DNA of 64,000 bases from a phage. Made by a program: the position numbers and the translations under genes. The notes below the pieces were generated by a model that was given only the letters and a program-made list of their open reading frames with translations, was not told the origin of the DNA and did not search any database. Shown piece by piece: positions 16,360 through 47,652 of the stretch. The stretch's first letter is position 1, and the number at the start of each line of letters is the position of its first letter. The DNA lies in the sequence record PQ478073.1, one strand, 5' to 3'.

Positions 16360-17703
16360 TTATTTGTCAGTGAAAGTTATTTTCCAATATCCCTGACGAT
16401 ACACAGGCATGATACTTTTATGCCATTTAAATTTGTCATTATATCTATAATAACCATTGTCTTCTTTATTATAAATGTAATTTCGTACAGTAGATGGTTC
16501 AATTAATTGTGCACCGTCATTTGTAATTTTAAACAAATAATTTGATGGGATTTCGGTTTCTTTATAAATGATGTTATGTATACTGTTATTTACATAATAT
16601 TGTTCAGGTAATGCACTTGAAAGTACTGAATCTTTCTGCACAAACCCATGTATAGTGTAATCAACAGTATAATTGGTATTATCAAGCTGTACTATAATTT
16701 TGTTGGCATCTTCATTTTCACCATACGACGCTATATGACCTTTTAGTGGGTTGTCTTCTTCAATAGATTGTTGAAATTTAATCCCTACTTTTTTGTCATC
16801 AAAATTTGGTTCTAGATATTTAAGATATTTTTCCCATGAATATATTCCACCGTTGGGAGAAACCGCAGATAGCGATTGGCTAACCAAGGTAAGTTGGTAT
16901 GTATCAGGTAAATTATACTTGGAATTAGTAATTTCTTCAACTTTAATGCATAAATTCTTGGGTGTAAAAACATCTGTTATTATATCTGAATAATTTCCCA
17001 TTTCAAAATCAAATTCGTCACGAGCACCTTTAATATTTGTAGTAATCTGTTGGATTAATTTTGGTTTTTCAACAATAGCTGGTAAAGAAAACCATATTGT
17101 CGTTTCAAATGTTAAAACCATTATATCCAAATCTGGGTCAGTTCCTTGTGGAAAACCACGAGTAGAAAACTGACAATCTATTAGTTCAACATCACTAAGC
17201 GATGTCCAATCTAACGGGTTATCAGATAATTGAAGTTGTATACTAGGTGCAAACAAAGTTGAGATTTGTTCGAATAATTCCATTTTAGTTTGAGTTTGAG
17301 TTACCCAAATATTCAAATCAAACGTAAAAGTCCAAGGTACTGGGTTATGTCTTACAATTTTGTATTGTGTGTCAAGATCTTTTGTGTACTCATTAATAGC
17401 AGGGGACTTGTTAGACCCCATTACTATAGTTTCGTTGGCATTAGAACGAATATTTTTACGATCCAACTTTAGTTGATTAACACTTATGGTCATTATAGGT
17501 GCTGATGGGAGAACATTTTCACTATTCCCATTTATAATTGCTGCTGCCATTCTTGAAATATCGGCATAGCGACATGGAACCTTTTTGTATTTTGGGTTTC
17601 CATTAGCATCAATACCATTTTGTACTTGAAATTCACCAAAAACTCTGATAAGATGTTTCAGTACTCTGCGAAATTGACCGTCATAATAATAATCTATTTT
17701 CAT
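16360..17703 (-). CDS. hypothetical protein, possibly virion-associated (447 aa)
   Basis: Start codon overlaps the upstream stop (ATGA at 17700-17703), implying translational coupling; product unknown. Confidence 0.5.
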   Translation of the reverse strand: MKIDYYYDGQFRRVLKHLIRVFGEFQVQNGIDANGNPKYKKVPCRYADISRMAAAIINGNSENVLPSAPIMTISVNQLKLDRKNIRSNANETIVMGSNKSPAINEYTKDLDTQYKIVRHNPVPWTFTFDLNIWVTQTQTKMELFEQISTLFAPSIQLQLSDNPLDWTSLSDVELIDCQFSTRGFPQGTDPDLDIMVLTFETTIWFSLPAIVEKPKLIQQITTNIKGARDEFDFEMGNYSDIITDVFTPKNLCIKVEEITNSKYNLPDTYQLTLVSQSLSAVSPNGGIYSWEKYLKYLEPNFDDKKVGIKFQQSIEEDNPLKGHIASYGENEDANKIIVQLDNTNYTVDYTIHGFVQKDSVLSSALPEQYYVNNSIHNIIYKETEIPSNYLFKITNDGAQLIEPSTVRNYIYNKEDNGYYRYNDKFKWHKSIMPVYRQGYWKITFTDK

Positions 17704-19193
17704 TCTGTGTCCTTATGTATGCGATAAACAGTATTAGGTTTAACTGCGTCATGTAATGGAACTTTGTTATCACTATTTACAAACTGTGTAAGTGCTAAGT
17801 CTGCACCTTCCCACGGTTTTCTTCCACCATAATCAAAAATAACCCATGAATTCTTAGTTGCATTGAATTCCCATAACGTAACTGGAGTATAATCGGTGCG
17901 ATAGAAATAGTCACCATCTACTGCATCAGTTGGGAACATATTTCCTTCAGGGACTGTACCTCGTGCTGGTGGAATTTTAGGACGATAATCTTGTTGCGAA
18001 TCAATATTACCATATACACAATTGGACGTGAATGGTTCATTGACATAAGTTACCTTTGGTTCCCCCCACTTGTCATCATTATACTGATAAATGTGTGGTT
18101 CTTTATAAAAAATACAAAAATCTTCCACATCTTCTGGTGGAACATCACTGGTAGTATATTCTACATCACAATTTAACCATTTTTTAGCACTTTTATCATA
18201 TTGATACAACGTATAACCTGTCACATCTGCGTCATTTTCTTTAAAGAAGAAGTCACCATCCATTGGTTTTCTGGGAAAGATGGTTCCACGCTTGACTTCC
18301 ACAAAAATCCATGTATCATTAACAAACTCTTTGAGTACTGGGTATGTTTTTTTCAAAAAATACATTCCATCGGCAGGTTCTTCTGGAAAATCATAACCGT
18401 TAAGCATATATTTTGATAAATCTACTGTATCAGGTCGATCATCATACAAATGTTCATTTGTATAATGAATATAGGGTACTTCATCATCAGCTTGCATGAT
18501 GATACGGTTCATGATATCCATTTCATTGCCATAGTTACTGTTTTCCGACGAACCATCATCGGTATTTCCATTACCATTATTAGGGTCATCTGGATTATCA
18601 GGATAATTATTGTTACCGAGTAAATCGGAGTACTCAGGTGAGTCGGTTAGCGGTTTAACTCTAAGTTTATAAATGTGATGTTGCCACGTAACCGAGTATC
18701 CCTCAGATGTACGAAATGCATCTTGGACGACATAGAAGCGGTTTAGACCTGTATCTTTACCCAATACATCAAAATCACGTAAATTTGGTAGTTCTATCAC
18801 ATCCCCTGGCATGATTTTTCTACCTAAACGCTGCATCATTGTATTATAATGGATTGTGATGTCCATAGTGTTGAAATTAAAGAACAATCCTGGGATTTTC
18901 AAGTCTGGAGTTGCTTCTTGAACTTGATAGACACAACTAAGTGTGATAGCTTCAAGGTTGTAGTTTCTGTTTGGTGTGTCACCAAAAATTAAATCGCCAA
19001 TACTTGACACAACTGATCCTGAAGATGTATAATCACCTCCATAGGATAAGTCAGTGTTGTCAGCAACTTGTTTTGGACCGACATATGCATAAAGCCACAT
19101 GTCAACTCCACCAATGTTGTATTGTTCAGCAATGGCAGAATCAATGAACTTGTAATCATTGGTTCTACCTTTTTTCCACATTCTATATGTCAT
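17700..19193 (-). CDS. hypothetical protein (497 aa from ATG 19193)
   Basis: Track start 19205 is TTG; first ATG at 19193 has a GGAG SD. D/N/P-rich segment in the middle; product unknown. Confidence 0.5.
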   Translation of the reverse strand: MTYRMWKKGRTNDYKFIDSAIAEQYNIGGVDMWLYAYVGPKQVADNTDLSYGGDYTSSGSVVSSIGDLIFGDTPNRNYNLEAITLSCVYQVQEATPDLKIPGLFFNFNTMDITIHYNTMMQRLGRKIMPGDVIELPNLRDFDVLGKDTGLNRFYVVQDAFRTSEGYSVTWQHHIYKLRVKPLTDSPEYSDLLGNNNYPDNPDDPNNGNGNTDDGSSENSNYGNEMDIMNRIIMQADDEVPYIHYTNEHLYDDRPDTVDLSKYMLNGYDFPEEPADGMYFLKKTYPVLKEFVNDTWIFVEVKRGTIFPRKPMDGDFFFKENDADVTGYTLYQYDKSAKKWLNCDVEYTTSDVPPEDVEDFCIFYKEPHIYQYNDDKWGEPKVTYVNEPFTSNCVYGNIDSQQDYRPKIPPARGTVPEGNMFPTDAVDGDYFYRTDYTPVTLWEFNATKNSWVIFDYGGRKPWEGADLALTQFVNSDNKVPLHDAVKPNTVYRIHKDTE

Positions 19194-19235
19194 GATTGTC
19201 TCCAAAATAAATCGGGTATATCTTTATTTACCTTG

Positions 19236-19263
19236 TAGACAAACCGTAAGAATGTGATATAAT
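19236..19263 (+). promoter_or_regulatory. sigma70-type early promoter with extended -10, driving the ClpA-like gene
   Basis: -35 TAGACA (19236-19241), 16-nt spacer, TGaTATAAT (19255-19263); same GACA-N16-TGnTATAAT layout as at 42208 and 46909. Confidence 0.6.
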
Positions 19264-19303
19264 GTTTATTAATTAGAGTGACGTGAATCACATAGGAGAA
19301 TAC

Positions 19304-21592
19304 ATGAATCTTACTCAATTGTTCAAAAAAAGCGACGAACTGGCAACATCTCTAGGTCATACATTCTTGACTATTGACCACGTAAGTGCCACAGTACTGA
19401 CTATTGATAGCATCAAGAACGTATTTGAAGATATGAACATTGATGCAGACAAACTGCACAACCGCCTGATGAACTATCTTAAAAATACAACAGTTCCACA
19501 TGCACCAAAAAGTGTTAAAGATGAAGACGCGAATCGCACTTCACTTCTAGTGAATCGCGTTGTACATGAGCTTTCTAAAAAATCAGTTATTGAACAACTA
19601 AAAAGTGATGATTTTTCGATTGATGCATATTTTGTTCTATTCGAATGTCTGTCTTTCCCTAACACAGCACTAGAAGCTGCGTTGAAAGAAGAAGGTGTTA
19701 GCTGTACTGAAGCTGCACGTGCATTGCAAAAACACGTTGAGTCACTTGATAAGGGTATCAACTTACAAAGTATTAATGACGAACCGATTGGAGATAAAAA
19801 AGTGGCCCAACAGCAGCAATCATCTAAACAAAAAGGTTTGGAAGACTATACAACGAATCTAACAGCTCTTGCAAAAGAAGGCAAACTAGATCCTATGATT
19901 GGTCGCCAGAAAGAATTGTCTGCATTGATTGAGACTCTTGCTCGCAAAACCAAAAAGAATGCTATTCTTACTGGTGAAGCTGGTGTAGGTAAAACACAAA
20001 TCATCGACGGTCTTGCACAAGCTATTGCTGACGGCAACGTACCTGAACACCTGAAAGACGTTGAAATTCTTTCACTAAATGTTGGTGCATTGACTGCTGG
20101 TACTAAGTATCGTGGTGAGTTTGAAGAACGCATCGACAATTTGCTAAAAGAACTAAAGAAACGTGAAAATACTATTGTTTTCATTGATGAAATTCATATT
20201 ATGGTTGGGGCTGGTTCCGCAAGTAATGGTTCTATGGACATGAGCAATATGCTTAAGCCAGCACTTTCACGTGGTGAGATTCGTGTAATTGGTGCAACAA
20301 CATATGATGAATATCGTAAAAATATCGAGAAAGATAGTGCATTAACTCGTCGTTTTATGAAAATTGATGTAGTTGAGCCGTCAATTGATGAAACTCGTGC
20401 AATTGTTAATGGTTTGAAACCAACTTATGAAAAATTCCATAATGTTGAGTTCACAACTGATGCAATGGATGCTGTAATTTCTCTCAGTGATAAATTCCTG
20501 AAGAATAAGCACTTCCCAGATAAAGCAATTGATCTAATGGACGCTGCTGCTGCAAAAGTTCGTTCACGTGACAACAATAGTAAGCTTATTACTGCCAATT
20601 TGATTCAAGAAGTTGTTGCTGGTATTGCCAATTTGGATATCAACGTGGTTGCATGTACTGAAAGTGATCGTATGCGTAATCTACCAGATGCACTACGCTC
20701 ACGTGTATACGGTCAAGAGGAAGCTATTCAAAAATTAGTTGATAACGTGATGGTAGCTCGTGCAGGTCTGCGTGACAAATCTAGTGTTCAGGGTGCATTT
20801 ATGTTTGTTGGACCATCTGGTACTGGTAAAACAGAAATTACCAAAGCATTAGCAGATGCAACTGGTGCGGAACTGATTCGCTTTGATATGTCAGAATTTT
20901 CTCAAGAACATACTGTTTCTAAACTAATTGGTTCACCTCCAGGTTATGTTGGTCATGATTCTGGTAACGGTTTACTGTTGGATAAAATTGAGCAGTTCCC
21001 TAATGCAGTACTGTTACTTGATGAAATTGAAAAAGCAGATCGTAAAGTACTACTAACCTTCCTACAGGTTTTGGATGAAGGTCGCCTGACTGGTTCACAA
21101 GGTAAAACTGTATATTTTAATAACGTAACTGTTATTATGACTACAAACCTTGGTGCGGCAGATTCAACGAAGCGTAGCATTGGTATGAGCGGTAGTGATA
21201 CTGCACAAGACAAGGCTATTAAAGCATTCTTGCCACCAGAGTTCATTAACCGTATTGATAGTATCGTTACGTTTAAAGACCTAAGCAGTGAAGCTATTGA
21301 CAGCATCATTGATAAGTTCATGGGCAGTTTGAATGAACAAGTCAAAGACCGCAATGTTAAAGTTACGTTGACAAAAGCTGCACGTGAATGGCTTGCGAAA
21401 AATGGGGTAAAAGTTGGCATGGGTGCACGTCCAATGAAACGTACCATTGAACAAAACATTCGTGTACCACTAGCTAAAGAAATGTTGTGTGGTTCACTTG
21501 TGAATGGTGGTAACATTACATTTGATGTTATTGATGGTAAAATCGGTATTAAACCTAAACGTTCCAAAGCTGTAGATAAAGCACTGGCATAA
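19304..21592 (+). CDS. ClpA-like two-ring AAA+ unfoldase (762 aa from ATG 19304)
   Basis: Double Clp-N-like N-terminal region; D1 Walker [10 protein letters not shown]; D2 Walker [10 protein letters not shown] and Walker [10 protein letters not shown]; no long ClpB-type middle coiled coil; IGM tripeptide at 21179-21187 where ClpA carries its ClpP-docking IGL loop. Track start 19283 is GTG; ATG 19304 has an AGGAG SD. Confidence 0.85.
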
Positions 21593-21602
21593 AAAAAGAA
21601 AA

Positions 21603-21627
21603 GGAGAGCAACATGCTCTCCTTTTTT
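21603..21627. terminator. bidirectional intrinsic terminator
   Basis: GGAGAGC-aacat-GCTCTCC hairpin flanked by an A-run (21591-21602) and a T6 run (21622-21627); between convergent genes. Confidence 0.8.
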
Positions 21628-21628
21628 A

Positions 21629-24600
21629 TTATTTAACTAATAATATATTTTTAATATCATTACCACTAACTTGTAGACTATCAGTGTATACTGAAAGATC
21701 TATAGTGTAACTATTTTGTGTGTAACGTTTTAACATATCATAATTACCTAAATTAATTCCATTGAATGAATATGTAGTATTAAGTTTAAAATCATGTTCT
21801 GCACTATACATTACTCCACGGAGTAAATTATTTGCATTTCTAACTTCAACTTTTTCATATCCAATCGATATAATATCATTTATGTTCGCGGCAGAACCGG
21901 ATAAAACATTATTTCTAATACTATAAGGACTTATTGATTTAGGTTGAGAAACATAGGTTGTATTTTCTTCACTAATGGTTGTGATGTTAGTAACCGTACC
22001 ACCAACAACACCGATGTACATACCGTCAACCATTGGATAACCATAAACCCATATACCTTCATTATTTCTAAACGGTTGAATAACACTTGAATCATATTCA
22101 ATAACGTTGATTTCTAAACTATCAGTCATTTTAGTTCTTGCTAATTCACTAAGAACTCCCGCACCAGTAATTGGTAGGTTATAACCGTTGTCGATAGTAA
22201 TTCCATCAACATCAAATATTTCGTTAGAGATTATCCAAACGTCAACGTCATCTGGTGTTATTCCGTCATTGTACTTACCACCATTTAAAGTAGTATCGTA
22301 GAAAACATCATAATTAATTACATCAATTGTGTAATTTCTATTTTGTTCGTACAATTTGATACCATTCTTCACAAATTCTGGGTCAGCAAATGTTCTAACA
22401 CGAACAATGTTCAATGCAAGAGGCTGTACTGGCTCATTTTGTTGTGCAAGAGTGATATTATCATAACGGAGAACTGCACCAGTACTCTCATCAATCAATT
22501 CAATCGTTTCTTTACCTGTATTTCTTACAGTGAATAGGATCGGAGTTGTATTGTTTTTGATGTTAGATACACGCAAGATTGTTTCCCATGTGTGATTTTG
22601 ATATCTCACAAAATCTTCACCATCAGGAGTGAAAATCATCACCTTATCACCATCAGATAGGTCATTGTCAACTATTTCTGCTTCAGTTAAGCTATTAATA
22701 GATCTCACACGATAGAAATATTTTTCATCAAACTTCGATGTTGTTTTATTAATATCATTTTCAATCTTAGCATATGAAGGAATACTAACAATTGCTTCTG
22801 TATGTTTATATGGATTGATAATTGCCATACCTTCAGTTTGATATCTGCTGTTATCACGTAATTGTACAAGAGATACATTGTCAAACCCATATCCATCAAC
22901 TGTAAATCTAATTTGACCAACATCACGCCCAGAAGGGTTTATGTCAGATATATCCACAATATAAGGATCAACTTCATCATCTTTAACTTCCCATTTTATT
23001 GAAGAAGTTTGAGATTCTAATGCTAGGTTATCAAATGCATTCATATCATTGAAGTACTTAGCTTCAGTAATACTATCAAGTATATATTGATAATCTGAAT
23101 ACATTGGGTTATTTTGATCTAGTGGTAAATCATCTAGATTTATTTCAGCTAGTTCAATCATTTCACCATTTGTGATAAAATAATCTTCCATGAAATCATC
23201 AATACTTTGTTCATCAGGTATACTTTGATATACACCGTTAACATTTAAGTAAACATATTTTCGTGGAATCATTGTAATTGCATAGATATCAATTGGGGTT
23301 TTACTAAGAATCTCTTCAGCTTTTTCGTACTTATCAGTAGCGTCTTTGTCGAATAACCCTCTCATACCTGCTAATACGTGAATAGCATCAGTATAGAAAC
23401 GGGTATCACCACCGACTTCATCATAACGATAAACATATACACCATACTCAACTTCAAGTTTAACTTTTACTTCATAGTCTGATGCGTCAGGATTTTTATC
23501 TTTAATTAATGAAATATATTTTTGATACAGTTCACTGCTTATTTCAAAATATCCATAGTTATAATCATTACTAGAAGAAAAGCCTAATGGAAGTCTAGTA
23601 CTAGGATTGTCATTATAAGTAAGTCCACTAAATCCACAACCAACTTCATCGTGAATTTTCTCATCACTTATATCTTTATAAAGTTTCAAACGGTTTGCCA
23701 ATGTGTTATACTGAACATATTGTCTAAGGTCAGTAAACATATCGTTCTGCGTTGATTCTTTATAAACACGCTCCAATGTAGCAGTAAATTCATCAGTTGC
23801 TTCTAAATCTTCCGCATGGTCTTTATACCACTGGTTAACACCATATGCTGTTCCTAATGTTACATCCAATTCTGGATAGTAGATTTGCATTTGATAAGCA
23901 ATAAGAAGATCGAAAGTTTCTTCACTATATTCTGGGAAAGAATATATATAACGTTGTAATTCATAGTTACTAACAGCATCCTTTTCATTGGATTGATATT
24001 TGTTATTAACACTTACTAATTCATTTATGCTTGCTAAATCTGCATTTGGTTTACATTGAATGTTATCGTAATGCATAATAATATCAATTTCTTGGAATCT
24101 TCTATTTGGTGTAATGAAATCACTTGGTAGTGAACCTACCTGTTCCCATTTTTGGGTAATTTCATTAAATTGAGCGTACTCATAATCCCAAATATCTTTT
24201 TCAGTTTTGACCCAAGAACCGTCAACGAAAATATATCCATTAGGATCTAAATCATTACACAGACCTTTTATTAAATCATCATCAGATGTCTTTTGCTCTA
24301 TTTGTGAACGAATTTTAGTTCTATAAGGTTTAACTTCTTCAAAATATTCAACAATTTGATTAATCAAATTATCGTTTGAATAGTTTTGAACTAATGATTG
24401 TTCCAAACCAACAATATAGATATATGATGTTTTAAATACCCAATCCACAACACTTTGTTCAACATGTACATATTTGACCATATCAAAAACAATTTCGCTT
24501 TGATGTAAATCGAAAGAATTTTTGAGTAAAGCTAGTGCTTTACGAACGTTGATTTCACGATTGCTTAGTGAACCATTATCATTATGAACACTATAATCTG

Positions 24601-27600
24601 CGTAAAGCATATCATTGAGTTCAACTGTACTGTTTTCACGACCAATCGCTTTCCAATAAATTGAATCGCGTGATTGTGATTTAATATACAATGTCCAAAT
24701 GTTTTCACTATCGGTAACTCTGATAATATCTCCAACTTGGTAGTTTTTAGTATTAGCATCTTCTAAGCTTGACTCTTGTGTATAAGTCGTGTTACTATCA
24801 TACCCAACATCATACCAATCAGCATATGACCAGTACTGAGTCATGTCCAATGAAGTTCCTAGTGATTCAACATAATCAGATTGTTTAATCATTTTATGTT
24901 GTCCCTCACCTTTGTTCTCTAACGTTATAGTAACAACACTACCCGCGTTTGCTGGACTATTCATTAACTGAATATATCCATTTTCGTCGAAGTGAATAAA
25001 ATAAACAGCACTAGAAGTTAATGGATTTGGTAGATATCCACTAGTACTTAAAATAACAGCGTCATTTTCTTTAAATTTATCACTTTCAACTGCAATAACT
25101 AATTCATTATTGTAAGACAATACACGGAAAGAAACTTCATTCGGGTTAACTTCAGTGGTTTTAACATTAAACACATCTTCCATAACAACACTATTAGTGG
25201 TTATGTTTTGTGACCTATAATAATTATTAGCACTTTCTACAAAGTTTCTACGAGCTTCTATAACATTTTGGAACCAAGTTTTGTTTGAACCTAAACCGTT
25301 ATCAACATCTGGATATAATAAATTAATCACAGAACCTGATTCAGTTGTTTCTTGACCAATTAGTGAGTTCCACATTGAATCCCAAATTAGTGGGTTAAAG
25401 TTATAGCTGTCACCTTCTTTACATAGTTGATACTGGTCATGTTTAACAACTTCAGTACTATCCATGTAATAAGAAACAGTTAAAATACTGGTATCATCAT
25501 TCACTTTAAATTGCATATTACTAAGAATAAACGAGTTTTCATTGATTGGAGCGAACCAAGGAATGTTTAGCTGTGTTGGATCTTTAATAATACGAGCAAT
25601 GTCAGTACATGATTTTGTTCTGGTATGTAGTGGTGGTACATAAATTGTATCACGTACCCAGAAATAGTATTTTGTCACATAACTATCAGTTGAACTATCA
25701 TATTCCAAAAATGTACTATAATTATCTTCAAGTGCAGTTCCACTTGGTAGATACATAGTATTATTTTTGTTTTTCTTAGCAACATCTTTACAGTATTTGT
25801 CCCAGTTATATGGCTCAACTGGTGAACAAACCCACTCTAACACATCAATTGTACTATGTGGTAATAAACGACCCCAGTTGTAACGTTTGTATTCATTGGT
25901 TGCATCAATGTCAACATTACCGTCTGCGTCATAAATTGCACGAGTATAATCCAAATAAAATGCAGTGCTAGTGTTCCACCATACTTGACCAACTTTATCA
26001 GCACCCCAAGCCTGGATTAACTCTCCATTACTATTATACTGTGCAGGATCAACTGGTGAAGTATATGTTACGTTTTGCATAGCCGCACCTGGAATAACAC
26101 CATTAATTGGGTCATAAACGTTTAGATATAGCTCAGTAATGTTAGTACGTTCATCATATGTCGTTGGACGATCAAATAAAGTACTTTGTGGTGCTTTAAA
26201 ACTATATTTCTTGTCAATGTAAGCTTGACGTTCATCAGTACTGGCAAAACGTGATACATAACGATACAAACGTGGACGTGTATCTGGATCAGTAAATTCA
26301 ATATCAATAGAAGTGTCAAATGGAACTACCATAACTTTAGGATCAGAACCAGCAGTATAATATTGACTTTCTACTGTTAAAGTATCTGGCATAAAGTTAG
26401 TTTCATCAACAAAATAATAATAATCACCATCTTCAAGTGGTACATTATCAGTTAAAGTTACTTTACAAAATTGTTCAGCATACACATCGGTATTTTCAAT
26501 AGGTGTTATAGAAACCATTTGAACATTAGTATCAACCAATTCAAAAATGTTCCACAAACCATTACCGTCTTTAAACATCCACACAGATTCAGGATTTTCA
26601 CCTTTACCATTAGTATAAGTTATGCGGTCATTATATGCAGTACTGAAATCTTTTGTTGTGTACGATACTTCATCCAATGTTACTGGACCAATATCTGGAA
26701 GTTGGATATTTTCACTTCTTCCACTACGCATTGGGAATGAGAACTTACCATTTGGACGTGTAATCCAACGAGGATCTTTACCCTGCTCACCGAAGTATAC
26801 AATATGATTACCATTACCATTTGAAGTTGCATTTACATCAAAAGAAACCATTTGAGGTTGTTGTTTAAATTGGTCATTGATTAGTTTAAATTGAAGGTTT
26901 TTCTTACCATCAATATTACCATATGTACCAATTTTAAATGCCCATTCTTGTAATGCTTTATATTCATCAGTGTCATATGATTTAGAAACACGAAGGACAC
27001 GTTCTAAAACTTGGTTAGTACCTTTATCGTGAATGAATCCTTTATAGAAATCAACACGACTAACATCACTACTAATCATACGCTGTAGATAATCACGAGA
27101 TTGATAACCAATCAAATGGTTTGACAACTCTTGTAATTGTACATCACTTACTGGAGTTTCACTATCATAATAATGTTGGAAATCCGACACTAATTTTTCA
27201 AATGATGGTAGTGTTCCAGCTTCCAAGATAATAAATCCAGGAGCTTGTAGGCGACCAGTCCATGAACCAGTAATATATCCATACATTTTAATTAGTTCTT
27301 GAATAGAACCATATGTTGGCTGATAAATGTAATCACCAAAAATAGTTTTATCATCAAAAATAACAGCATGTTCATATGAACACAAACTTAAACGAATCAA
27401 TGCAATGCGTTTATTAGATTCTAAAGTTCTAACAGTGAAGATATTTCCAATACGAGAAGTTTCAATTTCATATTGGCGAATACCTTGGTTATTATCATCA
27501 AGTAATGACCATACACCACCATTATTTTGCGTAATAGATTGTACTGAACCAAAGTCTGCCCCAAATTTAGCGTTTGCAGCACTTGGGGTACAAGAAATAA

Positions 27601-30600
27601 ATTCACCAGTTACTAGAGAATTCTGACTCCAGATCACGAAATCTTTAGCAATAGTGTTCCAATCTTGTTGAGCACCACTATCATTTACATCTTCAAAAAT
27701 CCAACCATGTTCTTTAAGATATTCACCATATCCACAAATAAAAGTATAAACTTCTTGGTAACTATTGAAAACTTTACCATATTCAATTGAAGCTTCAGAC
27801 TTCCATTCATTATAATGAACAACATTACGGTTTTCCAATTTAAGAGTTACTTTTCTACCATTTTTTACGGGAAGTTTATATTTAAATTTAGCACCAACTA
27901 GATCATATCCATCAATCTGATATGCACTACCATTCCAAGTAATTTTGATCGCACTCATTTGCTCATCACGGATATTATTAGAACGAACAAGACCAATGGT
28001 TTGGTTTTCTTGTGAAATAAGACCGAAAGATTTAGCATTGAATGTTAGCTGATCTGCTTTAGTAAATCCTCCAATTTTATGACCAACATTTATATAAGAA
28101 GAACGAACTACATCCCCATACTTGGTGGTAATATTTTTATTTTGATACATCAAATGGTCACTTACAAACATTTGATAACCAATTGTTCTTGTGCTATTTT
28201 CACCATGAACTACTGTATTTTTATCAAAATTAATACGCTTACGTGTATCACCATAAAGGAATTGTGAACCATCAGTGAATACTTCTTTTAAGTTATCATT
28301 GCGGGTATCCCAGAAATAGTTAGCAAATTGTGCTGGTTTAGCTTTATACAAAAGCATCATTTGGTCATATGCAAACAATGTAGTGTTCATGTATGTAAAT
28401 TCCATGTCACCCATATCACCATATGTCCAAGGTTCTGCTCTATGATTTAAAGATCCAGACACTAAACCTAAAATTTCAGGTGCAATATATTCAACCACAC
28501 AAATATCAATACCAGAAGATGTTTTATTTCCAGTTTTTGTAATTTTGAATGGCTGTACACCAAATCTTTTATATTTGTCATATTGACCACGACGATCACC
28601 AAATAAAATAGTTCCAGTACTGCTATCGCCAATACTTCCGTCAATATCCCAAAGACCACTAGGAACTAAATCACCTTGCTCATTCATAACAAGTGCTTCA
28701 TATACATATACAACATCACTATCACGTTCACCAACTTGAACAGCCGTTGGTTCGTATTCTTGGTTCCACCAAGTTGGACGTTGTGTAAAGCCAAACATTT
28801 CCCACGGATGGGTAGCTGGGCGATATGTACCATATTGGTCAGTGTAAATGGCACGCCATGAACCACGTGCAGGAATTTCAGTACTTTGACCATTAACTAC
28901 ATAATAAGTGCCAGTATAGTTCCAAGTTCTCCAATTGTTAGGATCATAATCATGTGTACTATTACTGATACCATTAGTTGCGGTGAAGTTAATGTATCCA
29001 CGTAGTAATAATGTTTGTTTCTCTTCAGCACTATATTCAGTTTTAGTGAAATATGGTGTAGGGAAAAGGTCATCACTATTCAATACTGGTACGTAATCAA
29101 CATCTTTGAATTTATTATCAATACTATTAAAAATTCTATTTTCTAATTCATATACAACATCATCCATTTTATCAACACCATTGATAACACGGTATGCTTT
29201 GGAAATAATACCAGTATGACTGATGTTATAACAGCTTGGTTTACTACCAGCAGTGAGGAATGTCGCTTTTTCTGGTACATATGCTTGAAGAATACCTAAG
29301 AACTGTGGTGTTGGTGGTATAAATGCACGAATGAATCCAGAAGTACTTCCAACATTATCATAATAGAATGGGAATGAACTATCACGTCCCATATTAATAG
29401 TAGTTAAAATTGCATCAACAATGTTTGCAGCACTATTTTGTAAAAAGTCTGATGGATTTTCATCATACATACGAAGCATTTGTGTATTAAATTTATTAAT
29501 GAATCTAAAATATTCAGATTGCATAAACATAGTTGCTTCAAATAAATCAATATCTTCATTTGCAGTATGTGCCATCAATGGAAGCATAGATGCTTCATTT
29601 TGGATAATTTTAGTACCTACGCCATTATTAACCAATCCTTTAGCCAAACGTTCTTCATAGTCATTGAAATCATCAGAAGAACCACGTGTAATGTTCTTTT
29701 GAATAATATCCTGAAAATGTAAAGTGTAGTCACCTTGGTTAATGTATATAATATTAGAATTATATGGGTTATTTTGTAGGTTGATTGGAACTTCATAAGC
29801 ACCTAATTCTTTATCAGGTGTTACAGTACTGCTATAAGTTCTGATTTGAATAACAGAATCTTCATCCAATTCTACAGTACTATCTAGAGTGATGCTTTGT
29901 ACTTGACCTTTTGAAACATTTTTGGTATATTTGGACACATCAACACCATCAACCACAACTTCAATAATATCAGAATCATTATCTAAAACTTTTTGTGCCA
30001 ATTCGAATGTATGGTCATATTTTACAATCTGAACACCATCACCAGTAATTGGATGCCAATCTAGATAAGTTTCTCGGTCAGCTTTATAGTACTGATATGT
30101 TCTATCAACTTCAATAACATATGCATACATACCATCAACTGGTTCTTTAAAAACTTCCATATCATAAACAGTACTGAATACACGATACATATCAGTACGT
30201 TTGACTTGTGGAGTTTGTTTTACAAATTGTTTAGAGTACTCTTCTGAACGAACCCAATCGGTTTGAAGATTCATTTCATTATTTTCATCAATAATGTTAT
30301 AATAGTATAAACCATCAATTTCAACTTCTTTTCCAAGATGGTCATAGGTATAACGTTGGGATTGTAAAAAGTTTTCATAAATGTAATAATTATAATCACC
30401 AAGTTCAATGTTATATCCATATACACTATCAGTTGCATAGTTGTAATTTATTTTAAAACCAAACAACTCTGAACCTTTAAAGTTACTTGATGGATATGTA
30501 GTACTGTTGTCAAGTTTGATACCATTACGATCATAAAGTTGGAATTTAGGGAATACGTTAACACTAGTTTTTGATTGTGCACGAACCCACAAAGAACCAT

Positions 30601-31600
30601 TCCAGTACATAGAACTATTACCATACTCATTACCTTTAGTGATTAGAACAACATCACCATCTTGAGGTTCACCACTTGGGCGTGATTCGGTTTCTTCTTC
30701 TGGATCTAGTGCTAAACCATAAACACGAGTACCATCTTGCATTTTTTTCACATATACATTATAAATTCTATTGTTTTCACCATTGTTACCAATACTGGTG
30801 AATAGAATACGCATTCCATCTTGCGGAATAATACCATCAATACGTATACCACTATTAATATCTTTTTGAACGATATCTTCAGGTTTAATAATATCAGAGA
30901 ACAGATCAACAGTTCCACGGAATTTTGTACCGTAGTTAATTAGCTCAATATTTTTATTATATTCAATAATTGGTGCACGTGCACGAATAAAACGTGAATC
31001 TTGCATTAATTCTTCAGTTAATATTGAGCCATCTTCTAATGTTTCACCTAAAGTATACCAAAAGTTTTGTAGTGACCATGTATTACCATTAAGTGCTCCG
31101 CGTTCCATTACAATGTAATCAGGTGAAGTAATATTATAAGAGTTTTTAGTATCCCAAAGATATGAGCTAAAATTGTTCATTTTATTTGGGTTAATAGCTG
31201 GAGTCCATGCATAAAACTTACCGTTGAACAAACGGCTTTCATTATCGGTTAGTGCTCCATAATGATTCATGTATCCAACTAGATCATCATAAAATTGAAT
31301 TGAACGAATTGTCGAATCATCATTTTTTGAGACGTAAGCAGTGGACAACTGATAAAGTTGACGTGCTACAGTACTTTCATGTAAGAAGATATTACCAGCA
31401 GCGGCAGGAGAACCCATATCACCAATATAGCCGTCAACTAATTCGTTTTCAGCCGGATTAAACCATTGTTGAATAACATCATCACTGACTTTTTGAATAT
31501 CTTCTAAGCCTTGCATCCACTCAGGCAATCTTTTAATAAAAAGCTTCTTCTGTACTGCTTCAGCCATCTGTGTAGGTTGAAACTTAAAATTATTAGTCAT
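21629..31600 (-). CDS. giant baseplate-associated structural protein (3323 aa from ATG 31600; 3333 aa from ATG 31630)
   Basis: Single uninterrupted ORF of ~10 kb, last gene of the baseplate operon after the gp25-like and gp6-like genes (the gp7 position in T4/P2-type order). ATG 31600 has a GGAG SD; the track ATG at 31630 has none. Confidence 0.6.
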   Translation of the reverse strand: MTNNFKFQPTQMAEAVQKKLFIKRLPEWMQGLEDIQKVSDDVIQQWFNPAENELVDGYIGDMGSPAAAGNIFLHESTVARQLYQLSTAYVSKNDDSTIRSIQFYDDLVGYMNHYGALTDNESRLFNGKFYAWTPAINPNKMNNFSSYLWDTKNSYNITSPDYIVMERGALNGNTWSLQNFWYTLGETLEDGSILTEELMQDSRFIRARAPIIEYNKNIELINYGTKFRGTVDLFSDIIKPEDIVQKDINSGIRIDGIIPQDGMRILFTSIGNNGENNRIYNVYVKKMQDGTRVYGLALDPEEETESRPSGEPQDGDVVLITKGNEYGNSSMYWNGSLWVRAQSKTSVNVFPKFQLYDRNGIKLDNSTTYPSSNFKGSELFGFKINYNYATDSVYGYNIELGDYNYYIYENFLQSQRYTYDHLGKEVEIDGLYYYNIIDENNEMNLQTDWVRSEEYSKQFVKQTPQVKRTDMYRVFSTVYDMEVFKEPVDGMYAYVIEVDRTYQYYKADRETYLDWHPITGDGVQIVKYDHTFELAQKVLDNDSDIIEVVVDGVDVSKYTKNVSKGQVQSITLDSTVELDEDSVIQIRTYSSTVTPDKELGAYEVPINLQNNPYNSNIIYINQGDYTLHFQDIIQKNITRGSSDDFNDYEERLAKGLVNNGVGTKIIQNEASMLPLMAHTANEDIDLFEATMFMQSEYFRFINKFNTQMLRMYDENPSDFLQNSAANIVDAILTTINMGRDSSFPFYYDNVGSTSGFIRAFIPPTPQFLGILQAYVPEKATFLTAGSKPSCYNISHTGIISKAYRVINGVDKMDDVVYELENRIFNSIDNKFKDVDYVPVLNSDDLFPTPYFTKTEYSAEEKQTLLLRGYINFTATNGISNSTHDYDPNNWRTWNYTGTYYVVNGQSTEIPARGSWRAIYTDQYGTYRPATHPWEMFGFTQRPTWWNQEYEPTAVQVGERDSDVVYVYEALVMNEQGDLVPSGLWDIDGSIGDSSTGTILFGDRRGQYDKYKRFGVQPFKITKTGNKTSSGIDICVVEYIAPEILGLVSGSLNHRAEPWTYGDMGDMEFTYMNTTLFAYDQMMLLYKAKPAQFANYFWDTRNDNLKEVFTDGSQFLYGDTRKRINFDKNTVVHGENSTRTIGYQMFVSDHLMYQNKNITTKYGDVVRSSYINVGHKIGGFTKADQLTFNAKSFGLISQENQTIGLVRSNNIRDEQMSAIKITWNGSAYQIDGYDLVGAKFKYKLPVKNGRKVTLKLENRNVVHYNEWKSEASIEYGKVFNSYQEVYTFICGYGEYLKEHGWIFEDVNDSGAQQDWNTIAKDFVIWSQNSLVTGEFISCTPSAANAKFGADFGSVQSITQNNGGVWSLLDDNNQGIRQYEIETSRIGNIFTVRTLESNKRIALIRLSLCSYEHAVIFDDKTIFGDYIYQPTYGSIQELIKMYGYITGSWTGRLQAPGFIILEAGTLPSFEKLVSDFQHYYDSETPVSDVQLQELSNHLIGYQSRDYLQRMISSDVSRVDFYKGFIHDKGTNQVLERVLRVSKSYDTDEYKALQEWAFKIGTYGNIDGKKNLQFKLINDQFKQQPQMVSFDVNATSNGNGNHIVYFGEQGKDPRWITRPNGKFSFPMRSGRSENIQLPDIGPVTLDEVSYTTKDFSTAYNDRITYTNGKGENPESVWMFKDGNGLWNIFELVDTNVQMVSITPIENTDVYAEQFCKVTLTDNVPLEDGDYYYFVDETNFMPDTLTVESQYYTAGSDPKVMVVPFDTSIDIEFTDPDTRPRLYRYVSRFASTDERQAYIDKKYSFKAPQSTLFDRPTTYDERTNITELYLNVYDPINGVIPGAAMQNVTYTSPVDPAQYNSNGELIQAWGADKVGQVWWNTSTAFYLDYTRAIYDADGNVDIDATNEYKRYNWGRLLPHSTIDVLEWVCSPVEPYNWDKYCKDVAKKNKNNTMYLPSGTALEDNYSTFLEYDSSTDSYVTKYYFWVRDTIYVPPLHTRTKSCTDIARIIKDPTQLNIPWFAPINENSFILSNMQFKVNDDTSILTVSYYMDSTEVVKHDQYQLCKEGDSYNFNPLIWDSMWNSLIGQETTESGSVINLLYPDVDNGLGSNKTWFQNVIEARRNFVESANNYYRSQNITTNSVVMEDVFNVKTTEVNPNEVSFRVLSYNNELVIAVESDKFKENDAVILSTSGYLPNPLTSSAVYFIHFDENGYIQLMNSPANAGSVVTITLENKGEGQHKMIKQSDYVESLGTSLDMTQYWSYADWYDVGYDSNTTYTQESSLEDANTKNYQVGDIIRVTDSENIWTLYIKSQSRDSIYWKAIGRENSTVELNDMLYADYSVHNDNGSLSNREINVRKALALLKNSFDLHQSEIVFDMVKYVHVEQSVVDWVFKTSYIYIVGLEQSLVQNYSNDNLINQIVEYFEEVKPYRTKIRSQIEQKTSDDDLIKGLCNDLDPNGYIFVDGSWVKTEKDIWDYEYAQFNEITQKWEQVGSLPSDFITPNRRFQEIDIIMHYDNIQCKPNADLASINELVSVNNKYQSNEKDAVSNYELQRYIYSFPEYSEETFDLLIAYQMQIYYPELDVTLGTAYGVNQWYKDHAEDLEATDEFTATLERVYKESTQNDMFTDLRQYVQYNTLANRLKLYKDISDEKIHDEVGCGFSGLTYNDNPSTRLPLGFSSSNDYNYGYFEISSELYQKYISLIKDKNPDASDYEVKVKLEVEYGVYVYRYDEVGGDTRFYTDAIHVLAGMRGLFDKDATDKYEKAEEILSKTPIDIYAITMIPRKYVYLNVNGVYQSIPDEQSIDDFMEDYFITNGEMIELAEINLDDLPLDQNNPMYSDYQYILDSITEAKYFNDMNAFDNLALESQTSSIKWEVKDDEVDPYIVDISDINPSGRDVGQIRFTVDGYGFDNVSLVQLRDNSRYQTEGMAIINPYKHTEAIVSIPSYAKIENDINKTTSKFDEKYFYRVRSINSLTEAEIVDNDLSDGDKVMIFTPDGEDFVRYQNHTWETILRVSNIKNNTTPILFTVRNTGKETIELIDESTGAVLRYDNITLAQQNEPVQPLALNIVRVRTFADPEFVKNGIKLYEQNRNYTIDVINYDVFYDTTLNGGKYNDGITPDDVDVWIISNEIFDVDGITIDNGYNLPITGAGVLSELARTKMTDSLEINVIEYDSSVIQPFRNNEGIWVYGYPMVDGMYIGVVGGTVTNITTISEENTTYVSQPKSISPYSIRNNVLSGSAANINDIISIGYEKVEVRNANNLLRGVMYSAEHDFKLNTTYSFNGINLGNYDMLKRYTQNSYTIDLSVYTDSLQVSGNDIKNILLVK

Positions 31601-31636
31601 TTTTGGACTCCATATAATTCGTTCATTCATTTGATT

Positions 31637-42292: not shown

Positions 42293-43132
42293 ATGACAAA
42301 TAGACCAAAGCGTAAAAAGTATCTCAATAATGCTGATTTACTTCGTGAAATACAAAAAAGTAAAATTTCATATTGCTGGTTATTAGACAAATCATATAGT
42401 ATGTATGATTATATTGTTTTTCATGAGTCAGAAATTACTGCTGAGTTACTAGAAAAAGCTAAGGCAGCACGAATTAAACGACTGAACAATGAAATGCTTG
42501 ATAGTATTCGTGAAAAGGAAAATATGAGTGCTAAAAAAGCTAAAGAATATGCAGATGAACACAATTTAGTTATCACTGACGTTCCAATTGATGAAGTTGT
42601 TATTCGTGTTATTACAGATGAACATATTCCACCAGATACTAGAGTTAACTTTGAACCATTCAAGCATTATATTGTAGATAATGAAGGTATTCTCTATGAA
42701 GTTTGTCGTTCTCACTGGAAAGGCGACCTTGAAACTGGTGAATTCAGTACTGTTCATGGTAAAATTACAAATGAACTTGGGAAGATGTTCATTAAACTTG
42801 CAGAGGAAATCTCACACAAATCTAATTACAGAAACTATACATACTTAGATGAAATGATGGGTGATGCAAGAATACAATTAGTTAAAAACGCACTTCTCTT
42901 TAAAGAGAGCATTCTTTATAAAAAAGATAAACCAGCAGTTCAGCTAAATCCTTTCTCTTACTATACATCATTCGTAAACAATAGTTTTCGTTCTATATTG
43001 AATAGTGAGAAAAATGTTCGAAATATACGTGATGATTTACTTGAAATGCATGGCTTTACGCCATCACATACACGTCAAATTGAAATTGAATTGAACATGA
43101 TTGAAAGGAAAAATGAAGATGGCTCTGTTTGA
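42293..43132 (+). CDS. 55: late-transcription sigma factor, gp55-like (279 aa)
   Basis: N-terminus KRKKYLNNADLLREIQKSK matches T4 gp55 (KPKYNYVNNKELLQAI); lies directly upstream of gp47/gp46 as in T4; ~90 aa longer than T4 gp55. Confidence 0.65.
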   Translation: MTNRPKRKKYLNNADLLREIQKSKISYCWLLDKSYSMYDYIVFHESEITAELLEKAKAARIKRLNNEMLDSIREKENMSAKKAKEYADEHNLVITDVPIDEVVIRVITDEHIPPDTRVNFEPFKHYIVDNEGILYEVCRSHWKGDLETGEFSTVHGKITNELGKMFIKLAEEISHKSNYRNYTYLDEMMGDARIQLVKNALLFKESILYKKDKPAVQLNPFSYYTSFVNNSFRSILNSEKNVRNIRDDLLEMHGFTPSHTRQIEIELNMIERKNEDGSV

Positions 43133-44150
43133 TAAAGCAATTACATTCACTGATATTCATTTAGGTTTAAAGAATAACAGCAAGCAACACAATGAAGATT
43201 GTTTAAACTTCATTAAATTCATGATTGAGGTAGCTAAAAAAAATAATATCAAAGTTTGTGTTTTTATGGGAGATTATTTTCATAATAGAAGTAATATCAA
43301 TATCCAAACACTAAACTATGGTTTACAAATTCTTCAATTATTAAATGATAATTTTGAAAAAGTATATTTTTTAGTAGGCAACCATGATATGTATCATAAA
43401 AACAAACGTGATATAACAAGTATCAATATGGCTCAAGTTTATGAAAATATAGAATTCATTAATGAAATTACAACATTTGATGATTGTACTTTCATTCCAT
43501 TTATGATTGAAGATGAATATAAGTTGTTACCTCAACTAAAAAGTAAGTATGTTTTTGGTCACTTAGAGTTACCAGGTTACTTGCTTAACAAGATGGTAGA
43601 AATGCCTGATCATGGAAAAGAAACAGAAGGTTCTTTTGGTGGTTGTGAGTATGTTTTTAGTGGACATTTTCATAAAAGGCAGTCAAAAACAACTTCAAAA
43701 GGAACTCGTGTAGTTTATACTGGTAATTGTTTTCCACATAATTTTTCCGATACATGGGATGATGCAAGAGGTGTAATGATCCTTGAACATGGTAAAGAAC
43801 CTATTTTCAAATCATGGGAACATGCACCAAAATATAGAACATTTACACTTTCAGAATTGTTAACTGATCCTGGTTATTATCTTCAAGATAATACAATATC
43901 AAAAGTTCAAGTTGATATATCAATAACAACAGATGAGATTAGTTTTATTCGTGATACATTTACTAAACTTTACAACATTAGAGAGTTTAATGTTGTAACG
44001 AGCAAGCAAAGTATCGCAGAATTAATTGAAGATGGTGTTAGTTTTGAAAGTACTGAATCAGTTGATGAGATTGTGTTGCAGCAAATTATGGAAATTGACT
44101 CACCCATGTTTGATAAAAATCTTCTAATCCAAATTTACAGATCGTTATAA
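43119..44150 (+). CDS. 47: recombination/repair nuclease subunit, gp47 / Mre11-SbcD-like (343 aa from ATG 43119)
   Basis: Calcineurin-like phosphoesterase motifs: TDIHLG, GDYFH, LVGNHDMYH, SGHFH. Track start 43101 is TTG. Confidence 0.88.
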   Translation: MALFDKAITFTDIHLGLKNNSKQHNEDCLNFIKFMIEVAKKNNIKVCVFMGDYFHNRSNINIQTLNYGLQILQLLNDNFEKVYFLVGNHDMYHKNKRDITSINMAQVYENIEFINEITTFDDCTFIPFMIEDEYKLLPQLKSKYVFGHLELPGYLLNKMVEMPDHGKETEGSFGGCEYVFSGHFHKRQSKTTSKGTRVVYTGNCFPHNFSDTWDDARGVMILEHGKEPIFKSWEHAPKYRTFTLSELLTDPGYYLQDNTISKVQVDISITTDEISFIRDTFTKLYNIREFNVVTSKQSIAELIEDGVSFESTESVDEIVLQQIMEIDSPMFDKNLLIQIYRSL

Positions 44151-44158
44151 GGGACTAT

Positions 44159-46816: not shown

Positions 46817-46846
46817 AATTCCTCACCAAACTATTTGTTATCAAAA

Positions 46847-46854
46847 TATTTATA
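46847..46854 (-). promoter_or_regulatory. candidate late promoter (TATAAATA) for Endo VII-like gene
   Basis: Exact minus-strand TATAAATA ~30 nt upstream of ATG 46816. Confidence 0.4.
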
Positions 46855-46908
46855 GATTAGTTATTTGCAATATTTTAAGTACTTAATGAATATTTTTATA
46901 AAAATAGT

Positions 46909-46936
46909 GAGACAACTTTAAAGTTTGTGCTATAAT
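46909..46936 (+). promoter_or_regulatory. orphan sigma70-type promoter with extended -10, facing an ORF-free region
   Basis: -35 GAGACA (46909-46914), 16-nt spacer, TGcTATAAT (46928-46936); no ORF of 60 aa or more downstream on the plus strand for ~700 bp. Confidence 0.5.
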
Positions 46937-46942
46937 GTTTGT

Positions 46943-47396
46943 TGTAGTAATGACAATCCTGTTGAATGCAGAAATGCATATAAATTAGAACCTGATCCTA
47001 TCGAAAATGTAGATGGCAGATGAGCAGTTCAACAGTGCGATGAGCAAAAGAAACCCGTTAGATGTGGGCATAGTTTGAACCCCTCACGGCAATGCGGCTC
47101 AATAAAGAACTCCGATAAGCATACAGAGAGTTCCTAGATAGACATATAAGGATCGCACCTTACCAGATTTGCTAAGGGAGTTTATTAAGTGATTTTAATA
47201 AACAGCCTGAAGTTTGATTGTATAGACTTTCAGGTGAGTGTCAGGATGATTAAGACTGACGACCGTTGCACATGACTGCGATAGAGAGAAACAGAGCAAC
47301 CCGCTTTCGTTCTTAATATATTTTTAAGAAATTCGCAATACAATAAATGCTGAAACCATCAGCGTCAAGAAATAGAGACTTCATTGTCTCTTTTTT
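46943..47396 (+). ncRNA. candidate ~450-nt structured non-coding RNA (unknown class)
   Basis: Bounded by the promoter at 46909-46936 and a hairpin+T-run at 47374-47396; only ORFs of 21 codons or fewer; locally higher GC than surroundings; several local stems (e.g. CCTGAA/TTCAGG 47206-47234, GTCAG/CTGAC 47240-47260). No tRNA T-loop/acceptor pattern found. Confidence 0.35.
47374..47396 (+). terminator. intrinsic terminator (plus strand) ending the candidate ncRNA
   Basis: AGAGAC-ttcatt-GTCTCT hairpin followed by TTTTTTATT. Confidence 0.5.
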
Positions 47397-47404
47397 ATTG
47401 TCTT

Positions 47405-47424
47405 CATTCCCCTGCGGGGGGATG
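47405..47424. other. GC-rich hairpin (CATTCCCC-tgcg-GGGGGATG) not followed by a T-run on either strand
   Basis: 8-bp stem with G6 run, conspicuous in an AT-rich genome; possible RNA processing/stability element or protein-binding site. Confidence 0.3.
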
Positions 47425-47490
47425 AAAATGTCCTCAACAAATCCCGTCAAGTATTAAATCTTTTAAAGTTCTTTATAATTAATTTAATTA

Positions 47491-47555
47491 AATGAATATG
47501 AGTTACGTAGTAACGAATATTCTTCAGCTAACGAATGAAATGAGTTAGATGAATC
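47491..47555. repeat. iteron-like direct repeats in AT-rich spacer
   Basis: AA(C/T)GAAT at 47491, 47512 and 47530 (spacings 21 and 18 bp) with a partial (A)TGAAT at 47549; TAACGAAT twice (47511-47518, 47529-47536); ATGAGTTA twice (47498-47505, 47540-47547). Confidence 0.35.
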
Positions 47556-47612
47556 CAATAATATTAAAATTAATCCTTTCATAATTCAATTCAAATAATT
47601 CTGTAGTTTAAA

Positions 47613-47641
47613 ACCAAAAAAAACCAGCAACAATGTGCTGG
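47613..47641 (-). terminator. intrinsic terminator (minus strand) after the 69-aa gene
   Basis: CCAGCA-caatgt-GCTGG hairpin (plus 47623-47640); on the minus strand it is followed by TTTTTTTTGG (complement of 47613-47622). Confidence 0.75.
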
Positions 47642-47652
47642 CTATATGAAAA

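Follow-up and report, generated by a model that had tools for sequence, protein, structure and literature searches.

The window analysed here, a stretch of 64,000 nucleotides (nt) of phage DNA from record PQ478073.1, contains at positions 19236–21627 a gene, clpA, whose product is predicted to be a ClpA-type double-ring AAA+ unfoldase and not a protein of the ClpB or ClpC type. The explanation that we favour, and hold to be moderately probable, is that clpA supplies the ATPase of a ClpAP protease that is encoded by the phage and made in the early or middle phase, in which a diverged N-terminal domain (N-domain) would select the substrates; the pairing of the two subunits is one that we infer. 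A first-pass annotation of this DNA had described a stand-alone unfoldase that might dock on the ClpP of the host. This description is true only of the 64-kb window, where tblastn detected no ClpP, ClpS or ClpX, as had been stated; nevertheless, a near-identical genome encodes its own intact ClpP. The presence of a full set of ClpA and ClpP changes the framing of the problem, and shifts the focus from the hijack of the host protease to a protease of the phage. The gene itself is already annotated, and published as conserved in the RaK2-like group, to which the window adds another copy. The contrast previously drawn with T4, which has no such gene, is beside the point, given that the window belongs to an Asteriusvirus jumbo phage in which the gene had already been annotated.

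The clpA gene and its two-ring product

The region examined, 19236–21627, contains a single long open reading frame (ORF), at 19283..21592 on the plus strand. The GTG at 19283 is unlikely to be the start codon; the likely start is the ATG at 19304, because a Shine-Dalgarno sequence, AGGAGA, precedes it and the orthologues start at the equivalent methionine. The gene and the parts of its product are listed below.

19304..21592, plus strand: clpA-like coding sequence, 762 residues, supported by matches to profiles, to PDB sequences and to orthologues
19294..19299, plus strand: Shine-Dalgarno sequence AGGAGA, 4 nt 5' of the ATG; GGAG is kept in the orthologues
19304..19753, plus strand: residues 1–150, diverged Clp N-domain, assigned from Pfam, an AlphaFold (AF2) model and Foldseek
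19754..19837, plus strand: residues 151–178, poorly conserved linker that follows the N-domain
19838..20593, plus strand: D1 AAA+ module, with Walker A GEAGVGKT (19973–19996), KYRG (20105–20116), Walker B FIDEIH (20180–20197) and the RRF arginines
20594..21538, plus strand: D2 AAA+ module, with Walker A GPSGTGKT (20810–20833), GYVG (20942–20953), Walker B LLDEIEKA (21014–21037) and sensor-2 GARPM (21422–21436)
21179..21187, plus strand: IGM tripeptide, residues 626–628, in the loop equivalent to the IGL loop of ClpA (residues 610–628 in E. coli)

The Pfam domains of the product follow the order Clp_N, AAA, AAA_lid_9, AAA_2 and ClpB_D2-small, and the best NCBIfam model is that of ClpA (TIGR02639, 755.6 bits, residues 9–747). 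This score and the one obtained with the model NF008263 (656.2 bits) lie under the respective equivalog cut-offs for ClpA, i.e., 993.15 and 1350 bits; ClpA is still the top-scoring family, and the protein is best called ClpA-like and considered as part of a diverged viral clade. The search against PDB sequences aligned the product without a break to E. coli ClpA (1ksf; residues 17–741 of the query against 20–734 of the chain, E = 6.5e-181), and tblastn gave 43.6% identity to the same protein over 732 residues. A full-length match was also obtained with phrog_4871, labelled 'ATP-dependent protease' (1036.5 bits, residues 2–756 against positions 11–761 of 764). In contrast, ClpB, ClpC and Hsp104 each align to the phage product in two stretches, as expected when the M-domain is missing, and hence no M-domain is placed between D1 and D2. 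The domain profiles and the end-to-end alignment to E. coli ClpA agree with the earlier description of a complete two-ring protein of the ClpA type, and the profiles assign it to ClpA as the best family and not to an AAA+ family outside the Clp group.

Across the 114 sequences of the viral clade there is essentially no variation in the Walker A and B motifs, the arginine fingers, sensor-2 or the two pore loops (KYRG and GYVG), all of which are identical or near-identical to those of E. coli ClpA (PDB 1ksf and 6w1z). The phage protein also resembles E. coli ClpA in the order N-domain, D1, D2 and D2-small, in its length (762 versus 758 residues) and in having no M-domain. With ClpB/Hsp104 and ClpC it shares the two AAA+ rings and the fold of the Clp N-domain; however, it lacks their coiled-coil M-domain, hence the split alignments. 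ClpB and Hsp104 are devoid of a ClpP-docking loop, and the hallmarks of these disaggregases, a long coiled-coil M-domain together with the absence of a docking loop, are not those of the clpA product. An identity as ClpB, ClpC or ClpV was ruled out, there being no M-domain and ClpA being the best model.

The docking loop and the N-domain

The IGM tripeptide falls in the alignment column of I617-G618-L619 of E. coli ClpA, which agrees with the position assigned to it by the first-pass annotation. In cellular ClpA, the IGL loop docks into the clefts of ClpP (PMC9663308). The loop of the phage protein is found at the same place as in E. coli ClpA, but it is two residues shorter, it carries IGM instead of IGL, and this tripeptide varies from one clade member to another. 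As judged from the alignment, IGM would be a conservative variant of the docking tripeptide I/L-G-F/L. Among the members of the clade (n = 114), 77 have a hydrophobic-G-hydrophobic tripeptide, 17 have hydrophobic-[N/S]-hydrophobic, 15 have hydrophobic-G-[G/A] and 5 have one of another kind; PA5oct and Atu_ph07 have the canonical IGF. A ClpP-type loop is kept in all 114 members, and the hydrophobic-G-hydrophobic tripeptide in 68% of them; since the latter fraction is no higher, cellular ClpA has this docking feature in a stronger form.

The N-domain is the most diverged part of the protein and is predicted to adopt the fold of a Clp N-domain. Its identity to E. coli ClpA is 19.6%, versus 47.8% for D1-D2, and Pfam Clp_N is matched marginally and in repeat 1 only (21.7 bits, the cut-off being 20.7). 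When the N-domain was used alone, the search against PDB sequences was marginal (E = 0.015), and the search for homologues, limited by the word index, returned 2 matches; the fold was then settled by a structure model. This AF2 model, built from 71 sequences, consists of eight helices and has a predicted local distance difference test score (pLDDT) of 83 and a predicted TM-score (pTM) of 0.79. With the model as query, Foldseek matched only N-domains of Clp/Hsp100 proteins, the top TM-score being 0.73 for the N-domain of ClpA (1r6o_B), and those of ClpC1, ClpB and Hsp104 matched almost as well; the check by AlphaFold and Foldseek that had been proposed earlier therefore returned a Clp N-domain fold. 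In E. coli ClpA, ClpS is contacted by residues that include E23, E28, T81, R86 and H94; one of these five is conservatively kept (E28 as D25), a count that depends on a weak alignment of the N-domain.

A ClpP encoded in the same genome

The regions beyond the window were represented by the complete and unannotated Asteriusvirus genome OR844650.1, of 352 kb, in which ClpA is 99.5% identical to the protein described here. This genome encodes one ClpP homologue, located approx. 82 kb from clpA (at ~239 kb versus ~156 kb of the record), and clpP is present as a single gene per genome.

L008 42986–43681, minus strand: phage clpP of OR844650.1, outside the window, identified by tblastn and Pfam

By tblastn, the phage ClpP shows 35.6% identity to residues 17–203 of E. 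coli ClpP (E = 1.8e-33), and it matches Pfam CLP_protease with 141 bits, over the cut-off. Its score on the NCBIfam models of cellular ClpP is ~155 bits, versus 51 on the model of the ClpP-related head-maturation protease. The Ser-His-Asp triad is conserved in the 7 phage ClpPs, as are P4, V6 and I7 of the N-terminal axial loop, residues that presumably contact the ATPase partner. Elsewhere in OR844650.1, neither ClpS nor ClpX was detected by tblastn, the sensitivity of which is limited for the short ClpS; the Clp set of Asteriusvirus is made up of ClpA and ClpP only. As compared with E. coli ClpA, the phage protein is virus-encoded, it would be paired with a diverged viral ClpP, and it has no detectable clpS adjoining its gene or elsewhere in the genome.

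The two genes have closely similar distributions. At an identity of at least 60%, orthologues of ClpA are present in 71 phage records and those of ClpP in 70, and both proteins are encoded in every lineage checked, i.e., Asteriusvirus, Alcyoneusvirus, GAP32, Eneladusvirus, the Erwinia and Xanthomonas phages, PA5oct and Atu_ph07.

Two other features of the clpP locus can be mentioned. The ClpPs of the RaK2-like phages have a conserved C-terminal extension of ~20 residues ('...KRRGGVEEWV') that is missing from the ClpPs of E. coli and PA5oct. Directly 3' of clpP lies a small ORF (L008 42647–42964, minus strand) of ~95–105 residues that is conserved in six RaK2-like loci; it matches phrog_16159, and the annotators of Muenster noted an HHpred match to 1YVW.

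Transcription of clpA and its promoter class

As predicted from its signals, clpA would be a monocistronic unit that extends from a sigma70-type promoter with an extended -10 element to a bidirectional terminator. The signals at the locus, together with the other sites of the same promoter class in the window, are the following:

19236..19241, plus strand: -35-like hexamer TAGACA of the clpA promoter, found by scan; its GACA core, 19238–19241, defines the promoter class
19255..19263, plus strand: extended -10 element TGaTATAAT of the clpA promoter, from scan and conservation
21597..21627, both strands: bidirectional intrinsic terminator of clpA (plus) and of the gene for a virion protein of 3,333 residues (minus), from hairpin scan, folding and conservation
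19225..19230, minus strand: late-promoter-like TAAATA box of the divergent virion gene 17700–19193 (minus); (A)TAAATA is kept in the orthologous intergenic regions
19238, 42210 and 46911, plus strand: sites of the pattern GACA-N13-TGnTATAAT in the window, from a pattern scan

The sequence scan placed the clpA promoter, TAGACA-16-TGaTATAAT, at 19236–19263. The number of promoter-like matches in the scanned region of 3.1 kb was that expected from shuffled sequences, and therefore the call of this promoter depends on its conservation and not on the scan. The orthologous loci of six phages were compared (RaK2, GAP32, fHe-Yen9-04, 7t3, Hallingskeid and Turkey5), which together with the window amount to 7 phages from five genera. 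TGnTATAAT is invariant in all of them while the surrounding bases diverge, and in the six orthologous loci a -35-like hexamer (TTGACA, TTGGAA or TTGGGA) is kept 16–18 nt away. The conservation of the -10 element across five genera favours the earlier proposal that the gene has a sigma70-type promoter of its own.

At the 3' end of clpA, the hairpin at 21597–21627 has a folding energy of -19.1 kcal/mol (z-score -6.4) on the plus strand and -16.9 kcal/mol (z-score -4.9) on the minus strand, and 0 of 200 shuffled sequences were as stable. Across the loci the hairpin folds with -17 to -21 kcal/mol, and the stem shows compensatory changes in the 6 orthologous loci (GGAGAGC/GCTCTCC, GGGAGCC/GGCTCCC, AGAGGGC/GCCCTCT and GGAGCC/GGCTCC); the annotation of phage G17 marks the same hairpin as a terminator. 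This structure would serve both genes, because it lies between an A-run and a T-run, and it ends one base short of the stop codon of the convergent gene. The convergent ORF (21629–31630, minus strand) encodes the protein of 3,333 residues, ~382 kDa, which corresponds to gp245 of phAPEC6, with 17 virion peptides and an unannotated function; conservation of both the size and the position of this ORF extends to all six orthologous loci. Terminators had been proposed on both sides of clpA, and it is only the one at the 3' end that stands. The upstream candidate (19137–19166, plus strand), a hairpin of -15 kcal/mol followed by a T-run, was rejected, as it lies inside the neighbouring virion gene: the T-run is antisense to conserved codons, those of M-W-K-K-G at the N-terminus of the virion protein, and its fold is unconserved in five genera (z-scores from -0.05 to -2.0). 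The upstream side of clpA is a divergent promoter region and not a terminator.

On both sides of clpA lie minus-strand genes for virion proteins, which have late-like (A)TAAATA boxes, in accordance with the reported location between two minus-strand late operons. The 62 proteins of the phAPEC6 virion include the products of the genes next to clpA (gp245 and gp248), while the ClpA protein, gp246c, is absent; ClpA does not form part of the virion. The non-late promoter, the virion genes with (A)TAAATA boxes on both sides and the absence of ClpA from the virion together indicate that clpA is a non-late unit of the sigma70 type inside a late block.

The clpA promoter belongs to a class that is specific to one strand. 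In the 352 kb of OR844650.1, GACA-N13-TGnTATAAT occurs at 18 sites, all of them on the strand of clpA, which is the majority strand, and 15 of them intergenic, when ~0.07 would be expected per strand. The pattern precedes clpA, clpP, the gene of a gp32-like single-stranded DNA-binding protein (twice), and the genes of RNase H, a PD-(D/E)XK nuclease, a NUDIX hydrolase and an AAA ATPase; the element in front of clpP reads TTGGAC-17-TGaTATAAT. The copies of the structured RNA described below also lie behind promoters of this class. In the related phage CBB, the late genes are preceded by ATAAATA, and a second, RpoD-like promoter class is found before the genes for DNA synthesis (PMC5259590). The GACA-N13-TGnTATAAT class resembles, in our comparison, the RpoD-like class of CBB, and it probably marks the early/middle regulon of these phages. 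From the motifs, clpA and clpP appear to be co-regulated with the replication genes.

With regard to strand usage, OR844650.1 has ~455 ORFs on the strand of clpA and ~52 on the opposite one, and this minority is located mostly in two virion blocks, at ~130–180 and 320–350 kb. A second non-late island with a promoter of the same class lies within the virion block of the window (42293–46306, plus strand). It includes the gene of a protein of 279 residues without a Pfam match, followed by genes for a Metallophos protein (Mre11/gp47-like) and a protein with a Rad50 zinc hook (gp46-like).

Orthologues and previous knowledge

The clpA interval is 98.2–98.6% identical in DNA sequence to the closest Asteriusvirus jumbo phages, i.e., 121Q, PBECO4, phAPEC6, slurp01 and the Salmonella SD-series, whose annotations give the gene as ClpA-like or as a subunit of an ATP-dependent Clp protease (121Q gp581, phAPEC6 gp246c). 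The protein is 99.5% identical to these two products, 76% to the one of RaK2 and 62% to that of GAP32. The ClpA-like proteins of the RaK2-like phages (121Q gp581, RaK2 ORF069, GAP32_229 and phAPEC6 gp246c; phrog_4871) form the same orthologous group, with the same synteny, promoter and terminator, and the product described here does not differ from them in substance. The protein search delimited the viral clade sharply: it consists of ~114 clusters with 53–93% identity, many of them on contigs of ~350 kb, and beyond it the score of the next match falls from 845 to 652 bits. The database labels are inconsistent, since the ClpA of PA5oct appears as 'porphyrin biosynthesis' and several records give ClpA as a hypothetical protein.

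Previously, Attai et al. reported a high conservation of ClpA in the majority of RaK2-like phages (PMC6102473), and Iyer et al. described ClpA and ClpX in subgroup 2.2 of the jumbo phages, for which translocase or assembly roles were suggested (PMC7824862). Our search of the literature returned no experiments that address the function of a ClpA or ClpP encoded by phages, or of any member of the clade, and the text of the paper on the PA5oct RNA-seq does not mention the Clp genes. The substrate of any clade member would thus be new.

Two more distant relatives have the same pair of genes in a different context. Atu_ph07 has ClpA and ClpP as Asteriusvirus does (PMC6102473), within a total of seven Clp-family genes that also include ClpS, ClpX and ClpB, and it has a DnaJ-like gene upstream of clpA. 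PA5oct also shares ClpA and ClpP with Asteriusvirus and differs from it in the DnaJ-like gene located directly 5' of clpA. A DnaJ homologue was looked for in the Asteriusvirus genome and none was found.

L019 784–1473, same strand as clpA: DnaJ-like gene 5' of clpA in PA5oct, from reading of the locus
L020 597–1403, same strand as clpA: DnaJ-like gene 5' of clpA in Atu_ph07, from reading of the locus

Proposed function and alternative explanations

If clpA and clpP encode the two halves of one protease, hexamers of ClpA would dock on the rings of the phage ClpP through the IGM loops, unfold selected proteins and feed them into ClpP in the early or middle (replication) phase, and the diverged N-domain would determine the choice of the substrate or of an adaptor. 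The candidate substrates would be host proteins or phage early proteins that need to be removed. Several observations weigh against this explanation. The complex of ClpA and ClpP is one that we infer, and the two genes are separated by the distance given above (~82 kb). The timing of clpA expression is deduced from promoter motifs only, which do not distinguish early from middle; hence, from the early unit that had been proposed for this gene, the non-late promoter class is retained and the assignment to the early phase is not. The tripeptide departs from hydrophobic-G-hydrophobic in 32% of the clade, e.g., MNM in 7t3 and IGG in Hallingskeid, which is unusually variable for a partner of ClpP. 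The ClpA tripeptide and the residues of the ClpP pocket were set side by side across 7 genome pairs; the residues that line the docking pocket of E. coli ClpP include Y60, F82 and L114, and at these positions the phage ClpPs are changed (Y60T, F82S and L114G). Also contrary to the proposed protease are the conserved position of clpA inside a tail/baseplate gene block and its location directly after a DnaJ-like gene of the same strand in PA5oct and Atu_ph07, which fit a chaperone, and the presence of ClpP in what was detected when virions were prepared from CBB (one peptide) and PA5oct ('ESI-MS/MS' note).

One alternative is that the phage ClpA docks on the ClpP of the host, alone or in mixed complexes with the phage ClpP, and in this way redirects host proteolysis. 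In its favour are the alignment of IGM with the IGL of E. coli ClpA, the 48% overall identity of the D2 docking face to this protein and the abundance of the host ClpP as infection begins. Nevertheless, we consider it unlikely, given that the phage has its own intact, co-regulated and co-occurring ClpP, so that a partner from the host is not needed; in addition, the tripeptide drifts widely among phages whose hosts generally carry IGL in their ClpA, and the pocket and C-terminal tail of the phage ClpP differ from those of the E. coli protein, hinting at a private interface. The changed pocket and the tail could indeed represent a private, co-adapted docking interface. On this basis a further step can be proposed, for now a tentative one with a low probability, that the viral ClpA and ClpP form a private protease apart from the host ClpAP, with a docking code of its own and an N-domain that selects targets for destruction in the replication phase; the argument for the private code combines three features, namely the drift of the tripeptide (hydrophobic-x-hydrophobic), the remodelling of the pocket in ClpP and the conserved C-terminal tail of the latter. 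If true, this private protease would be a virus-encoded switch for regulated proteolysis and not a housekeeping chaperone, with targets among the host proteins, e.g., those of defence or stress, or among the early proteins of the phage.

A role that does not involve ClpP, either as an unfoldase/chaperone for very large proteins of the virion (e.g., the neighbouring one of 3,333 residues) or in remodelling without degradation, seems quite improbable, even when the location of clpA between virion genes is kept in five genera, the DnaJ-like gene lies directly 5' of it in two phages and the docking tripeptide is relaxed in about a third of the clade, all of which would fit such a role. The promoter of clpA belongs to the replication-phase class and not to the late class of its neighbours, clpA is on the strand opposite to that of the neighbouring virion genes, a ClpP-type loop is present in every member of the clade, unlike in ClpB and Hsp104, and clpP co-occurs across the whole group. 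Likewise, DnaJ is missing from Asteriusvirus as far as our search could find, and the synteny may only mirror the general collinearity of these genomes.

It could also be argued that the phage ClpP is a head-maturation protease and nothing else, as stated by its label in RefSeq, in which case it would be unlinked to ClpA. The best PHROG of the phage ClpP is in fact phrog_94, 'head maturation protease', and the ClpP peptides in the CBB and PA5oct preparations point in the same direction. However, the window contains a T4-type prohead protease of the Peptidase_S77 family (gp21-type; 54056–54679, plus strand) beside genes similar to those of gp23 and gp20, and its counterpart in phAPEC6, gp227c, is present in the virion proteome; since a separate prohead protease is encoded and found in the virion, the phage ClpP is not expected to be the head protease. 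The threefold higher score on the cellular ClpP models, the conservation of the axial-loop residues presumed to contact the ATPase and the position of clpP among replication-phase genes, behind a promoter of the early/middle class, also oppose this explanation, which we regard as very improbable. A phage-encoded ClpAP protease therefore remains, among these explanations, the one that we prefer.

A predicted structured RNA in the window

The third site of the promoter class in the window precedes a stretch of ~840 nt without ORFs (46817–47652), where the promoter reads GAGACA-N13-TGCTATAAT. The core of this stretch, of ~450 nt (46998–47451, plus strand), is present in the Asteriusvirus genome as 4 paralogues, itself included, and 4–5 copies per genome are found across the RaK2-like group; the family comprises 291 places in 71 records, with ~70–75% nucleotide identity across the RaK2-like phages. 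RNAalifold applied to 9 sequences predicted 84 pairs in 16 helices, 42 of the pairs with compensatory double changes. In this model 95.9% of the cells are paired, versus 40–48% when the partners are slid by 1–3 columns, and 0 of 500 shuffles reached the observed values. An identity as transfer RNA, tmRNA, any Rfam family or group I intron was rejected for 46998–47451. In the related phage PA5oct, four ncRNAs were defined by RNA-seq. From its predicted fold, the element in the window looks like an undescribed large structured RNA, a candidate for a new family of non-coding RNAs.

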